Source: a virus
Direction: 5' to 3' (one strand)
DNA: 37,662 bases
Virus record (IMG/VR): IMGVR_UViG_3300042922_000419
Coordinates: 1-37,662 of that record
Each line of letters opens with the position of its first letter. The first letter of the stretch is position 1. Below the pieces are notes generated by a model. The model had not been told where the DNA came from, searched no databases, and saw only the letters and a program-made list of their open reading frames with translations. Position numbers and translations under genes: made by a program. This document shows positions 34,253 through 37,623 of the stretch, one piece after another.

Positions 34253-34420
34253 TTGGCTAAATATGTATTAGGATTGAGTTTTAAAGATAATTCAGAGGAT
34301 AAAAAGTTACTCGACTGGATTAATGAGCATAGCAATAAAAGTGGTTTTGTAAAAGATATTTTAAAAAAGGAGATGGAAAAAGAGTTAAGAAGAAAATTAG
34401 GAATTTTTACAATGGAATAG
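34253..34420 (+). CDS. 55-aa protein, possible small regulator (first gene of the operon)
   Basis: TTG start after AAGGAG. LAKYVLGLSFKDNSEDKKLLDWINEHSNKSGFVKDILKKEM. Below the track cut-off. Confidence 0.4.
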   Translation: MAKYVLGLSFKDNSEDKKLLDWINEHSNKSGFVKDILKKEMEKELRRKLGIFTME

Positions 34421-34546
34421 TAAAAGCTCCCCCAGTGCCTGGACAGCTATTATAGGGAGAGCCAAAAACCACCACCGACAAGAGGTAGTCTATTATTATG
34501 CTACCACAAATTTATAAAAAATCAATCGAATTTTGGAGGTAGTTTT

Positions 34547-34759
34547 ATGGAAACGAAAAAAATATCTGGTATTTACGAATTGAACTTACCGTCATATGTT
34601 TTAGAAGATGTAGAAAACCGAATTCAAGACTGGTTAAGTATGGGAGGAAAAGAAGAGGATCAATACATCCAGCGCCAAATTTATTATGCTTTGTTGGTTG
34701 CAGATAAAATAGAAAATCAAGAAATGCACATTTTTGGAGGTAGTGGATATGAAATTTAA
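34547..34759 (+). CDS. Hypothetical soluble protein (70 aa)
   Basis: GGAGG ribosome-binding site. Overlaps the next gene by 11 nt. Confidence 0.55.
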   Translation: METKKISGIYELNLPSYVLEDVENRIQDWLSMGGKEEDQYIQRQIYYALLVADKIENQEMHIFGGSGYEI

Positions 34760-35147
34760 TGAATTAAAAAAAACGCACAATGGCGCTATGATTTTTTCCT
34801 TTGCTCGTAACCTTCGCATAAGTAAAAATATGCAGGCAATAGCCAAAAAATGCAAGTCCCACGAAGATTTGTTCCTAAAAGTGATATTTTTATGTTTCAT
34901 TTTTATATTTAATTCGACAATAGCATATGCGGATACAGGAAAAGGGTTAACTTTATATTACAAGTTAGCGGGAGGTGCCGTTAAACTGATTTTAATATTC
35001 AAGGGTGCATTTGAAGTTGTTCAGGCGTGTATTAATGGCGACGTACAAGGTGCTAAAAAGAATTTGATAGGTTATTTATTAGCATTTGGTAGTTTATATC
35101 TATTGCCAACTGCATTTGATGAAATCGAAATAATGTTCAGGGATTAG
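34749..35147 (+). CDS. VirB2/TrbC-pilin-like membrane protein (132 aa)
   Basis: Long leader ending FIFNSTIAYA|DTG. The mature ~70 aa has two hydrophobic helices around the polar loop CINGDVQGAKKN. The call is based on topology only. Confidence 0.45.
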   Translation: MKFNELKKTHNGAMIFSFARNLRISKNMQAIAKKCKSHEDLFLKVIFLCFIFIFNSTIAYADTGKGLTLYYKLAGGAVKLILIFKGAFEVVQACINGDVQGAKKNLIGYLLAFGSLYLLPTAFDEIEIMFRD

Positions 35148-35157
35148 GAGGAATTTT

Positions 35158-35364
35158 ATGAATAGCCAATTTACATTGTTTTTAACCAATGCAAATAAAT
35201 TCTTTGACATAATCTTCAATCCTATTAAATATTTGCAAGAAGTAAGTTATTCCGTGTGCCTAATAGGTTGTTTGGTAGCTATCACGCTGGGTGTTGTAGG
35301 ATTTGACACATATAAATATGCTTGGTTGTGCATTATAATTTTCATATTCATAAATATTTTATAG
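35158..35364 (+). CDS. Two-TM small membrane protein (VirB3/TcpE-like position)
   Basis: VCLIGCLVAITLGVVGF and YAWLCIIIFIFINIL. AGGAGG ribosome-binding site. Directly precedes the ATPase gene. Confidence 0.45.
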   Translation: MNSQFTLFLTNANKFFDIIFNPIKYLQEVSYSVCLIGCLVAITLGVVGFDTYKYAWLCIIIFIFINIL

Positions 35365-35376
35365 GAGGCGGACCGA

Positions 35377-37623
35377 TTGAAAATTGAATTAACTAAACCA
35401 AATTATATTTATTTAAAAGTAACTCCAGCAACTTCTATCAGAAACAATGATACTTATAAAATAGCTCAAGCTATCCAAAGTACTTACAAACCTTTCTTTA
35501 ACAGATTCACATTCCATGATTATAAACAAATTCTAAATAACGCACTCCCACAAATGATAAAATTTGAATTACCATATAAAACAGCGTATATGATTTACAT
35601 AACAAAGAAAACAGTTGAGTTTTATTTTATTATTGATGAAAGATATAGGAACATACTTAAAGAAGCTTTAAGCAGGGTTTGGAGCTCCGTAACAATTTAT
35701 GATATAAAGAAGCTCCCTGAGTTTTCTCAAAACGCATTATACAAACAATTGGTATACGCTAAAGAGGATGCACTCTCTTTAGCTGCCGATCGTAGAGATA
35801 ATGACCTGATAAGTAATAACTTAAATATTATTGATGTATTACAGGAAAATGAAAAGGTTGGTATTTTTTATAACTTCATACCTACCAGTCAATACTCATG
35901 GAGAGCAGCATATAAAAACACACTCGATAAATATAAAACTGGTAATCCAGTAGATAAAAACAAGATTAATTTAAATTATATAGTTAAGTCGATTTTTAAT
36001 GAAATATATCTGACAATAAACATGTTTAATAAAAACACAGGTGTAAGTCTATCAAGTACTAAAGAACTTTCGAATTTTACGTATTTAAAGGGTTCTGAAA
36101 CAATTCTAAATACTCAAATAGCTTTAGTTGGAGATAGTTACAATAAATTAAATTCAATAAATAATCTTAGAAGTTTGGCGAACAGCTTCAGGTCTATAGA
36201 CAATGACAATTATTTAAGAAGTAAAAATGCTAAGAAGTTCAATTTTTTAGATTTAAATATAGGGGGATATGAAATGAATAAATGCAGCATAAACGAATGT
36301 GGAAACTTTTTAAGCTTACCAGGTCGAGAATTACTTGAAAGATTTGGAATAGAGCATATAAATACCTTAGAAACTGAAATACCTGAAGAACTTCAAAGCG
36401 GATATATTAAATTAGGTACTAACACATATAAAGGTAAAACAGCAATAACTACAATGTCAGCGGATAAGAATTTAGCTAACCTTGGATTAGTGGCCTTAGG
36501 ACCTCAAGGATGTGGCAAGAGCACATTTTTCGGTAACTATGCTAAGGATGTATCAGACAAAGACGAAGGATTGATTTTAATTGATTTTATAAAAAATTGT
36601 GAACTGTCAAATGAAATAGAAAGAGTTGTTCCAAAGAATAAATTAATAGTGCTTGATTTATCAAAGCAAGAGGATATGCAGTCATTCAGCTTCAATGAAG
36701 TAAATAACTTTAAGGTTAACTCAGATTATGACAGATTAGTAATATCAAATATGCAAACTCAATTAACAGTATCGTTTATTGATTCAATAAATTTAGATCA
36801 GAAATTAACTCCAAGAATGAGAAGGAGCTTAGTTGCAGCTGCTAATGTGGTATTTATAAATAAAAACATGAGTATGAGAAATGTTGTGGAATGTATTTCG
36901 GACCATCGTAAAAGAATAGACTACATAAACAGGATTCCTGAAGGCTTAAAAGAGTATTTGAAAGACGATATATTCAACCTTGAAGATATGAATGAAGTTG
37001 ATAAAGCTGGAGAAATATCGGGAACTAAGTCCGCTAAAAGTGATTATGTTTTAGATAGAATAAGTGTTTTAATGGAAGATATAAAGCTCAAAGTTATGTT
37101 TAATAAACCTATGGATAAGAATTTGGATTTAATTAAGGCCATGGATGATGGAAAGCTATTATTAATAAAGATACCTGAAAGCCATTATCCAACAAAAACA
37201 CATAAAAACATATTAACAACGTTCTTTATATCTAAAATATGGTTAGCTTCACAGTTAAGAGGTGGTATGTATAAAGAGCCAAGACGAACACACATTATCA
37301 TTGATGAGGTATTTCAAGCTCCTACGACGGAATATATTTTAAGGGATGTTTTAGTTCAGTGTAGAAAATTTCAAACAAAGTTTGTTTTCTCAGCTCATTA
37401 TTTATCGCAAATAGATACTATTAAGGAAGCATTAAAAGCATCCGGAAGTAGTTACATGTTAATGCAGGGAACAGATAAGAAAAACTTTGAAGAGTTAAAA
37501 GAGGACTTGGCTCCATTCGAGCTCCAGGATCTATTAAACTTAAAAAGATATCACAGTTTAAATCTTATAAAAACTTCAAACGGATATTCTAAGTTTATAA
37601 CTGAATTACCAAAGCCAATTTAA
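35377..37623 (+). CDS. HerA/FtsK-superfamily P-loop ATPase, VirB4/TcpF-like (748 aa)
   Basis: TTG start after AGGAGG. Walker A GPQGCGKST at about aa 376, Walker B THIIIDEV at about aa 655, CRKFQTKFVFSAHYLSQ (RK..Q segment). No TM helices. Confidence 0.6.
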   Translation: MKIELTKPNYIYLKVTPATSIRNNDTYKIAQAIQSTYKPFFNRFTFHDYKQILNNALPQMIKFELPYKTAYMIYITKKTVEFYFIIDERYRNILKEALSRVWSSVTIYDIKKLPEFSQNALYKQLVYAKEDALSLAADRRDNDLISNNLNIIDVLQENEKVGIFYNFIPTSQYSWRAAYKNTLDKYKTGNPVDKNKINLNYIVKSIFNEIYLTINMFNKNTGVSLSSTKELSNFTYLKGSETILNTQIALVGDSYNKLNSINNLRSLANSFRSIDNDNYLRSKNAKKFNFLDLNIGGYEMNKCSINECGNFLSLPGRELLERFGIEHINTLETEIPEELQSGYIKLGTNTYKGKTAITTMSADKNLANLGLVALGPQGCGKSTFFGNYAKDVSDKDEGLILIDFIKNCELSNEIERVVPKNKLIVLDLSKQEDMQSFSFNEVNNFKVNSDYDRLVISNMQTQLTVSFIDSINLDQKLTPRMRRSLVAAANVVFINKNMSMRNVVECISDHRKRIDYINRIPEGLKEYLKDDIFNLEDMNEVDKAGEISGTKSAKSDYVLDRISVLMEDIKLKVMFNKPMDKNLDLIKAMDDGKLLLIKIPESHYPTKTHKNILTTFFISKIWLASQLRGGMYKEPRRTHIIIDEVFQAPTTEYILRDVLVQCRKFQTKFVFSAHYLSQIDTIKEALKASGSSYMLMQGTDKKNFEELKEDLAPFELQDLLNLKRYHSLNLIKTSNGYSKFITELPKPI

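Follow-up and report, generated by a model that had tools for sequence, protein, structure and literature searches.

In the type IV secretion systems (T4SSs) of R388 (TrwL/TrwM/TrwK) and Agrobacterium (VirB, with the order VirB2-B3-B4), one or more small membrane proteins are encoded ahead of a large ATPase, which combines a VirB4-type N-terminal domain with an FtsK/HerA-type motor. Here we describe an operon with the same gene order in a viral genome, IMG/VR record IMGVR_UViG_3300042922_000419 ("the window" means the whole stretch analysed, positions 1 to 37,662 of that record, 37,662 nucleotides). The operon lies at positions 34,253 to 37,623, and we think it quite probable that it is a reduced T4SS derivative: a conserved accessory module of phages of endospore-forming Firmicutes, made up of a VirB4-family ATPase, two hairpin proteins of the VirB2/TrbC type and a probable ribbon-helix-helix (RHH) protein. 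With the VirB core it shares the predicted architecture of the ATPase and, in its 132-aa precursor, a VirB2-like combination of long leader, AxA site and two hydrophobic helices. It differs from that core in having no match to PF03135, PF12846 or PF05101, in having a middle protein that is not VirB3-like, in lacking VirB5-B11 and VirD4, and in being carried by a phage of a monoderm host.

Two further systems are useful for comparison. PrgF, PrgH and PrgJ of pCF10 (ter Beek et al. 2025 preprint) likewise come from Firmicutes and likewise pair two-transmembrane small proteins, each with a short charged cytoplasmic loop, with a VirB4-type ATPase. VirB2-type pilins became known from Gram-positive conjugation only with a preprint of December 2025, in which VirB6 is regarded as necessary for them (bioRxiv 10.64898/2025.12.18.695078). 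Further points of likeness are that the small proteins are hardly conserved in sequence and that wall hydrolases belong to the system. However, PrgF pili have been modelled only on the pentameric VirB6-like PrgH, whereas the module is without a VirB6 analogue, a relaxase or a coupling protein. The ATPase family also has no match at E 1e-5 or better in enterococcal, staphylococcal or streptococcal conjugative plasmids. The archaeal Ced and Ted systems (CedA, CedA1, CedA2, CedB; TedA/B/C) are minimal T4SS derivatives that move DNA between cells, with one or two two-transmembrane VirB2-like proteins and a VirB4-like ATPase; the VirB2-like proteins are processed in Ted and unprocessed in Ced, and a ParA-type segregation ATPase is often found alongside (PMC9905601). 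Ced and Ted differ in being chromosomal systems of archaea that import DNA and keep a VirB6-like channel (CedA/TedA), and sequence similarity to them would not be expected.

The closest described relatives are in phages. Pathria et al. (2012) proposed a "DNA translocation operon" in 0305phi8-36 and SPO1 on the basis of a relaxase-like orf200, a TraG-like orf201 (the gp27.4 homologue), a VirB6-like orf203 and an MreB-like orf207, and the 0305phi8-36 authors tied the operon to aggregation and biofilm life (PMC3357382). SPO1 gp27.4 belongs to the same family as the window ATPase (98% of the query aligned, 23% identity, E 1e-19), and so does BFVD entry A7KUX5, a fold match to the window ATPase at E 4e-32. 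These operons have the accessory character and the actin-like partner seen with the module elsewhere, and SPO1 gp29.1 is TrbC/VirB2-like. They differ in also carrying a Replic_Relax/MobC-like gene and, reportedly, the VirB6-like orf203 (both lacking in the window), and in belonging to lytic phages, whereas the window phage is temperate. In 2012 the ATPase was taken for a coupling protein of the TraG/VirD4 type, and the pilin-like proteins were not identified.

A first-pass annotation of the window, made from its sequence, had taken the module to be undescribed, but the ATPase family was discussed in that 2012 paper. The family and its conjugation-like flavour are thus already known, and the module is not categorically new. 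We found no later functional work on the phage DNA translocation operon in the searchable literature; reviews name related genes "FtsK/SpoIIIE-like" and speculate on sporulation. What appears to be undescribed in that literature is the presence of two VirB2-type partners (one of them often fused to an M23 peptidase), an ATPase built like VirB4 and not like VirD4, a module whose structure stays fixed over ~100 loci, and the host restriction.

The module and the parts of its ATPase are as follows (all on the + strand):

34253-34420, +, r58: small basic protein of 55 aa, TTG start
34547-34759, +, DUF6877 protein: soluble, 70 aa (PF21793, E 4e-15; phrog_1455)
34749-35147, +, m137: 132 aa from its ATG (a mechanical TTG start at 34734 would give 137 aa)
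35158-35364, +, m68: 68 aa, two transmembrane segments, no leader
35377-37623, +, ATPase: 748 aa, no transmembrane segment by hydropathy
35377-36381, +, ATPase N-terminal domain (residues 1-335): soluble alpha/beta, predicted to be of the VirB4 N-terminal type
36382-37623, +, ATPase C-terminal domain: predicted FtsK/HerA-superfamily P-loop domain, helical insertion at residues ~440-590
36499-36525, +, Walker A motif GPQGCGKST (residues 375-383), from the translation
37291-37311, +, Walker B motif HIIIDEV (residues 639-645), from the translation

The five co-directional, tightly packed open reading frames (ORFs) of the first-pass annotation are all present in the ORF list. The 68-aa and 748-aa ORFs each have a ribosome-binding site, AGGAGG, 7 nt upstream of their starts, and the intergenic gaps are 10–12 nt. 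For r58, we prefer the TTG start at 34253 over the mechanical GTG at 34244 because the AGGAG at 34240-34244 fits it.

We collected 126 related loci, searched their ORFs with iterated hidden Markov models and clustered the neighbours; component counts refer to the 99 non-redundant loci having enough upstream sequence. The first-pass annotation had called for a survey of this kind, and it pairs the ATPase with m137 in 91 of the 99 loci and with m68 in 78. An r58-like gene is present in 64, an ALP_N actin-like gene in 41 and an M23 gene in 30. Order and strand are constant: a helix-turn-helix gene and an actin-like gene (each where present), r58, variable small ORFs, m137, m68 and the ATPase, with the end of m68 lying -3 to +13 nt from the ATPase start in most loci. 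What follows the module in relatives is an integrase or serine recombinase gene, or else host DNA. The same order (RHH gene, then m137, m68 and ATPase) recurs in the 126 related loci; the arrangement is far beyond chance, and the two genes for small membrane proteins are no random reading frames. The DUF6877 gene is a rare variable insert (2 of 90 loci) and no conserved member of the module. Between it and r58 lies a 126-nt spacer (34421-34546) that is G+C-richer than its flanks and has no significant structure (z = -1.3).

The family is large. By tblastn, the window ATPase finds 56 phage records, which include Clostridium phiCp-D (40% identity), Terrisporobacter TPDSL_ph2 (34%), SPO1 gp27.4, TP-84, D6E and phage G; 146 records are found with SPO1 gp27.4 as the query. 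The protein collection holds 694 matches to the ATPase, and 50%-identity representatives form 331 clusters at E 1e-30 or better. A nucleotide search of the region against the phage collection gave no match, so relatives are visible at the protein level only. Prophage copies in Sedimentibacter, in Bacillus and on one metagenomic contig sit at the prophage edge, after the lysis genes, and many predicted proviruses in IMG/VR stop directly after the ATPase gene. Strictly lytic phages (SPO1, phage G and 0305phi8-36) are carriers too, so the first-pass description of the module as orphan cargo gives way to one of a widespread, vertically conserved unit.

Carriers comprise phages, prophages and plasmids, and the hosts identified are endospore-forming Bacillota only (Clostridium, Hathewaya, Romboutsia, Lacrimispora, Bacillus, Geobacillus, Paenibacillus, Sporosarcina, Alicyclobacillus and others), save one Microcystis phage record. 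No phage of Staphylococcus, Listeria, Enterococcus, Streptococcus or Lactococcus is among the ATPase-family matches, and SPO1-like Herelleviridae occur in several of these hosts.

Some relatives have further genes at the module's edge. At L039 (10957-12339) and at L031, L033, L040, L049 and L075, which form one subgroup, a free-standing M23 gene comes after the module, and next to it is a gene for a DndB-like protein (PF14072), which is DNA-modification-associated and may be adjacent defence or anti-defence cargo. At L076 (10896-12093), L041, L087, L046 and L056, an AgrB-like gene (PF04647) and a gene for a 6-7-transmembrane protein stand directly downstream of the ATPase; at this edge of the prophage, the pair resembles a quorum-sensing cassette of the agr type.

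The ATPase is the most informative component. Both Walker motifs reported for the 748-aa protein in the first-pass annotation are present in the translation. Residues G380, K381, D643 and E644 do not vary among 30 relatives (SPO1 and TP-84 included), down to 22% identity, and from its conserved residues the motor is predicted to be catalytically intact. The profile of phrog_5156, a family of unknown function, matches residues 2-735 (E 3.3e-93). Pfam, NCBIfam and PDB searches, with the single sequence and with a profile, gave generic P-loop matches only (the profile finds nothing in the PDB), so the classification of the ATPase rests on predicted structure.

An AlphaFold2 model of the full-length protein, built from a 50-sequence alignment, has a pLDDT of 88.3. 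Its Foldseek matches in the PDB to VirB4, TrwB and HerA range from E 1e-12 to 1e-9: the best is full-length TrwK/VirB4 of the R388 T4SS (E 1e-12, ~870 aligned columns), followed by TrwB (E 2e-10) and HerA (E 4e-10), and the top target-normalised TM-score among the hits listed, 0.65, belongs to the C-terminal domain of Thermoanaerobacter VirB4. Because domain orientation depresses global scores, we also modelled residues 1-335 alone (pLDDT 88.9, pTM 0.85). The whole top 10 for this domain consists of TrwK/VirB4 chains of R388 (E 1e-4 to 9e-3, TM-scores 0.32-0.41, identity 6-9%), with another TrwK chain ranked 12th; all six matches below E 1e-3 are VirB4, and every non-VirB4 match has E 0.013 or worse. 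The VirB4-like ATPase of the first-pass annotation is thus borne out, i.e., TrwK/VirB4 for the N-terminal domain and VirB4/TrwB/HerA for the motor. On these models, we regard it as fairly secure that the protein is VirB4-like in fold and domain architecture.

The other identity on offer is that of a coupling protein (VirD4/TraG), which is the label of the 2012 paper and of many public annotations. TrwB, VirD4 and TraG likewise have a motor with a helical insertion, and TrwB is among the fold matches above, but they have an N-terminal transmembrane anchor where the window ATPase has a soluble, VirB4-like domain of 335 aa. We reject it as the best label, since the missing anchor together with the VirB4-type N-terminal domain indicates VirB4 and not coupling-protein architecture. 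Judged by sequence, TrwB is the closer model for the motor: TrwB_AAD_bind (PF10412), the DNA-binding domain of coupling proteins, is matched in 18 of the 30 relatives (best E 6.7e-8), although not in the window ATPase itself, and the PF10412 matches recorded in the collection for two relatives are marked faint. This similarity accounts for the frequent use of "TraG/VirD4/T4SS DNA-binding" as a label in public databases, where the family is at present mis-annotated, with at least six names in use.

The two small membrane proteins supply the second part of the T4SS resemblance. By hydropathy, the 132-aa m137 product has a cytoplasmic leader and a signal-peptide-like transmembrane segment ending in AYA, with predicted cleavage before the D that follows. 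In the mature part, the charged loop INGDVQGAKKN joins two hydrophobic helices, of which one is clear and the other weaker (Kyte-Doolittle ~1.4 by our own sum), and the last helix has a conserved proline. The family alignment shows a variable leader, a hydrophobic segment running to a small-x-small site, ~70 mature residues and a G-D/K-rich loop. Hydropathy and alignment therefore both agree with the VirB2/TrbC precursor plan that the first-pass annotation proposed, and profile similarity is weak: TrbC (PF04956) is the top Pfam family for m137, but with matches in 5 of 48 members and a best E of 2.9e-4. The hhalign comparison of the m137 family with family A8, a TrbC/VirB2-named family in which many members carry PF04956 or PF18895 (T4SS pilin), gives Prob 34% and E 4e-4.

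The 68-aa m68 product is a two-transmembrane hairpin with no leader and a short K/R-rich loop between the segments. Such a loop predicts that the loop is inside and both termini are outside, which is the topology of VirB2-like proteins, leaderless PrgF included (bioRxiv 10.64898/2025.12.18.695078). The m68 family (A3) fits the TrbC/VirB2-like proteins better than the m137 family does: hhalign against family A8 gives Prob 67% and E 5e-5 over 61 columns, covering the whole hairpin. SPO1 gp29.1 reaches Prob 87% (E 4e-6) against the same family, and the controls, SPO1 gp27.5 (Prob 0.1%, E 0.46) and the window holin (Prob 0.3%, E 0.22), do not approach these values. The VirB3 label that the 68-aa protein had been given does not survive, as only its gene position resembles virB3: PF05101 is not among the 25 most frequent Pfam families over 47 members, the predicted topology is termini-out, and the family matches TrbC/VirB2-like proteins instead. 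The 68-aa protein appears to be a second VirB2/TrbC-like hairpin in the style of PrgF or CedA1, and m137 and m68 are probably paralogues.

Simpler forms of the module exist. In TP-84, D6E and vB_BceS-M2, a single ~145-aa protein precedes the homologous ATPase. These more distant ATPase relatives lend the pilin reading independent support, since the proteins encoded ahead of them, here and in the plasmids described next, belong to family A8. The large plasmids of C. botulinum/sporogenes, among them the botulinum neurotoxin (BoNT) plasmids pCLK, pCLJ and pCLD, have a plasmid-borne form of two genes: a homologous ATPase (25% identity over 99% of the length, E 1e-36) and one 133-aa pilin-like protein, whose gene overlaps the ATPase gene and is named "TrbC/VirB2 family protein" by NCBI. 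We considered whether this pair is part of a full T4SS and rejected the idea, as there is no VirB6-like gene within 14 kb of it and the transfer genes of the literature lie elsewhere. The pCLK pair (L127) occupies 108421-111221, and the same pair is found in pCLJ, pCLD and C. sporogenes plasmids. BoNT plasmids are reported to be conjugative, yet PLSDB types most of them as non-mobilizable.

Upstream, r58 shows a strand-helix-turn-helix pattern and matches phrog_4223 (E 9e-8). It is probably an RHH DNA binder, judging by this pattern, and may act as an operon regulator and/or a DNA adaptor. Its family is always upstream on the same strand in the 64 loci that have it, and in many relatives the protein ends in a conserved tail. 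Loci with an actin-like gene have it directly before r58, as ParM precedes ParR; the genes concerned encode ALP_N/MreB-like_C proteins (SPO1 gp27.9 is one), and an ALP_N gene together with a small RHH-like gene stands directly upstream in 30 of the 99 loci. In SPO1, gp27.3, directly after the ATPase gene, is a Replic_Relax protein (PF13814, E 3e-12). Around r58 in the window we found no convincing centromere-like or oriT-like repeats, and no iterated repeats of the centromere-like kind were found in the upstream region.

The genome that carries the module is a circle of ~37.5 kb with 32% GC and a direct repeat of 127 bp at both ends of the record; the phage is temperate and its host is Clostridium-like. 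After the int region come a RecT/nuclease early region, the terminase and structural genes, and the lysis cassette. The features around the module are:

362-1471, -, tyrosine integrase gene int, with repressors and excisionase next
32010-32504, +, holin (holin_4_1), first gene of the lysis cassette
32491-33114, +, Peptidase_M23 of 207 aa (PF01551, E 1e-18), between two holins
33116-33457, +, holin (Holin_LLH), last gene of the lysis cassette
33511-33530, both strands, bidirectional intrinsic terminator that ends the late/lysis operon
33646-33660, +, second terminator, downstream of the lysis cassette
34128-34252, +, AT-rich divergent intergenic region 5' of the first module gene, the presumed promoter/operator
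37630-37659, both strands, strong bidirectional terminator with a 13-bp stem at the module end, with attP and int next across the circle junction

The two terminators at 33511-33530 and 33646-33660 insulate the module from late transcription. The module is therefore a separate transcription unit between the lysis genes and int, flanked by its own terminators. A scan of the window gave 10 terminator-like sites against 1.4 expected. The module shows no foreign base composition (30.7% GC vs 32.2%), and no known RNA families were found in the window.

Three neighbours deserve mention in their own right. The lysis cassette (32010-33457) is unusual in combining holin_4_1, an M23 peptidase with a C-terminal domain of ~65 aa, and Holin_LLH. 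Between the late-operon terminator and a reverse-strand gene lies a candidate phage small RNA (33566-33672, +), with a promoter-like TTGTCG-17 nt-TATAAT followed by a transcript of ~75 nt that would fold into a pair of hairpins, the latter being a terminator made of a GC stem and a U-run. The fold has a z-score of -3.4 (none of 200 shuffled sequences was as stable), and the RNA has no match in Rfam. The reverse-strand gene (33765-34127, -), divergent from the module, encodes a protein of 120 aa that begins with a membrane anchor or signal sequence and has a weak DUF4359 match (E 5e-5); a homologue occurs near the module in 6 related loci only, and the protein is a candidate lysogenic-conversion or exclusion protein.

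The M23 peptidase corrects one point of the first-pass annotation, which had reported no cell-wall hydrolase anywhere in the circle. In relatives, M23 is tied closely to the module: it is fused to the m68 hairpin in 11 of 47 aligned relatives (E to 9e-34), usually at the N terminus and sometimes at the C terminus, and another group of loci has a separate M23 gene directly after the ATPase. That M23 can be fused at either end fits a hairpin with both of its termini outside the cell. Examples of N-terminal fusions are L037:7331-7969, L025:7180-7857 and L046:2260-2949, and of C-terminal fusions L061:7336-7953 and L059:4973-5599. Loci with a fusion still have a separate amidase endolysin and holin. 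Monoderm conjugative T4SSs also include membrane-anchored wall hydrolases (bioRxiv 10.64898/2025.12.18.695078).

For the M23 of the window, the setting is different. No homologue of amidases turned up in the window (the search did not extend to further lysin families), so the M23 between the holins is probably the endolysin, and a phage endolysin is what we consider it most likely to be. Its similarity to module-associated M23 domains is generic only (24-36% identity). It is possible that it also serves the module in trans as a wall-opening partner.

How might such a set of proteins work? Our preferred reading, held tentatively and at somewhat less than even odds, is that the module is a pared-down derivative of a T4SS, a conduit through which phage DNA passes the envelope with no capsid; the steps would be these. 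On the cytoplasmic side of the membrane, the loops of the hairpin proteins would be the site where the ATPase oligomerises. With ATP, the ATPase would extract the hairpins and assemble them into a short fibre or conduit spanning both the membrane and the thick wall. A peptidoglycan hydrolase would open the wall (an M23 fused or adjacent in relatives, possibly the M23 lysin here). The DNA-binding protein would bring phage DNA, helped by the actin-like filament ATPase in relatives and by Replic_Relax in SPO1-like phages. Phage or prophage DNA could then cross the envelope virion-free, either from cell to cell in a chain or biofilm or from mother cell to forespore, with the machine working alone or borrowing VirB6/VirB8 pore components from a resident conjugative element.

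Of all this, the data show the homologies, the gene order, the conservation and the transcriptional insulation, whereas the assembly, the substrate and the direction of transport are inferred. We favour a DNA conduit because it accounts for more of the components than the other readings do. A DNA theme also recurs among the relatives, in the ALP_N genes directly upstream, the Replic_Relax protein of SPO1 and the PF10412 matches. Its closest working analogues are the DNA movers based on VirB2 and VirB4, i.e., Ced/Ted, and the PrgF pilus. Given the restriction to endospore formers, delivery to the forespore is an attractive variant, although host-clade inertia could equally explain the distribution. 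The boldest version, an autonomous, VirB6-less VirB2/VirB4 nanomachine that carries the phage genome across the envelope capsid-free (for conjugation-like spread between chained cells, or for forespore delivery and carriage in spores), we judge unlikely.

Several observations weigh against a T4SS-derived conduit. There is no VirB6-like pore, VirB8, coupling protein or relaxase in the window, as the first-pass annotation had already seen, and none is conserved from -6 to +4 kb of the ATPase in the 126 loci. Polytopic proteins near the ATPase in those loci are sporadic AgrB-type or host genes only, and among window proteins only the tape measure has as many as 4 transmembrane segments, with no polytopic VirB6-like gene. 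VirB2-type fibres are thought to assemble on VirB6 (bioRxiv 10.64898/2025.12.18.695078). Deletion of the homologous region in 0305phi8-36 gave no growth phenotype, and no other phenotype is on record for that operon (PMC3357382). The VirB4 resemblance is one of fold only (TM-scores 0.32-0.41, identity 6-11%): the VirB4 Pfam models (CagE_TrbE_VirB PF03135, AAA_10 PF12846 and DUF87) do not match the window ATPase and are also outside the 25 most frequent families across the 30 relatives, which makes the family a distinct, distant branch. Moreover, we know of no VirB4 protein that pumps DNA itself.

The accessory components raise similar doubts. Taken alone, the window m137 has no match to the TrbC-like profiles and the window m68 reaches only E 0.003 against family A8, so the pilin evidence holds at the level of families. 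The RHH fold of r58 finds no support in Pfam (40 members scanned, no match). Since the N-terminal M23 fusions (M23 domain of ~150 aa) have no signal peptide, an outside location of the M23 is uncertain. Finally, the window is without the actin-like and Replic_Relax genes, which carry the argument for DNA.

Searches for known defence systems gave little. As the first-pass annotation had expected, none was recognised: the sole PADLOC match is mad8 (E 2.7e-13), confined to the ATPase domain, and we treat it as generic because the mad profiles are deliberately broad, being built from HHpred alignments. Membership of the MADS defence system was rejected, as the other seven genes of the eight-gene mad1-mad8 operon (which includes a methylase, a specificity subunit and a kinase) have no match.

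Other functions can be proposed for the same genes, but each leaves some conserved partner unexplained. A prophage-encoded membrane ATPase complex could block or expel incoming phage or conjugative DNA or abort infection, i.e., act in superinfection exclusion or to fend off mobile genetic elements. An insulated unit beside int/attP is in a typical position for lysogenic conversion, the complex would be membrane-localised and has an ATPase with a mad8 match, HerA-type ATPases do serve defence systems (the fold search matches Sir2-HerA), and lytic growth of 0305phi8-36 was unaffected by the deletion (PMC3357382). We nevertheless think such a role improbable: PADLOC offers nothing beyond the generic mad8 match, the module is equally conserved in the strictly lytic SPO1, phage G and 0305phi8-36, and the actin-like, RHH, Replic_Relax, processed-pilin and M23 partners would have no explanation. 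The DNA-related partners would be at home in an intracellular positioning device, a membrane dock to which the RHH adaptor, together with actin-like filaments in relatives, would bring the DNA of phages or plasmid prophages for replication, segregation or inheritance, like AlpC/AlpA of CGP3 or ParMRC, with nothing crossing the membrane. The ALP_N and RHH-like pairs upstream in 30 loci fit this, as do carriers that are plasmid prophages or large plasmids (phiCp-D, which has ParM, D6E and pCLK), and there is precedent for a phage actin and adaptor that carry DNA to the membrane (PMC4446434, PMC8026635). However, a dock needs neither a signal-peptide-processed pilin-like protein nor a peptidoglycan hydrolase fused to a hairpin, most loci (the window included) have no Alp gene, and the window phage integrates via a tyrosine integrase and has no partition gene; this role, too, we rate as unlikely.

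Two roles at the cell surface are harder still to accept. VirB2-like proteins plus a VirB4-like ATPase form the core of pilus biogenesis, so the module might make a lysogenic-conversion fibre for adhesion, aggregation or biofilm, or one that serves as receptor or decoy, with no DNA substrate. Its moron-like operon and the link to aggregation and biofilm drawn by the 0305phi8-36 authors (PMC3357382) would suit such a fibre, but an adhesin, a tip protein and a VirB6 platform are all missing, lytic phages carry the module too, and the Replic_Relax, RHH and Alp partners go unexplained, so we give it little credence. The hydrolase suggests an envelope-remodelling or lysis device instead, in which the hairpins, as holins or anchors, would deliver M23 to the wall under regulation by the ATPase for septal wall opening, spore wall changes or lysis timing. 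In 30 of the 99 loci, M23 does stand fused to the hairpin or beside it, the N-terminal fusions lack a signal peptide, as endolysins do, and in the window the module adjoins a lysis cassette with M23 between two holins. Against this, ~70% of modules have no M23, the fusion loci keep a separate amidase endolysin and holin, a VirB4-like ATPase of ~750 aa is without precedent in lysis, and terminators insulate the module from the late operon; of a function in lysis or wall remodelling we are therefore very doubtful.

Whatever its function, the module is a natural and very small set: two pilin-like hairpins and a VirB4-like ATPase, with a wall hydrolase, an actin-like motor and a relaxase-like protein as optional additions. 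Should it turn out to be an exclusion or positioning device, it would still represent a large phage gene family without an assigned function (331 clusters at 50% identity). If instead it is a DNA conduit, it would define a minimal T4SS and could reveal virion-independent transmission of phages or a means of loading their genomes into spores; in the boldest version, it would be the smallest known T4SS-derived conduit for DNA and a second route of transmission for tailed phages.

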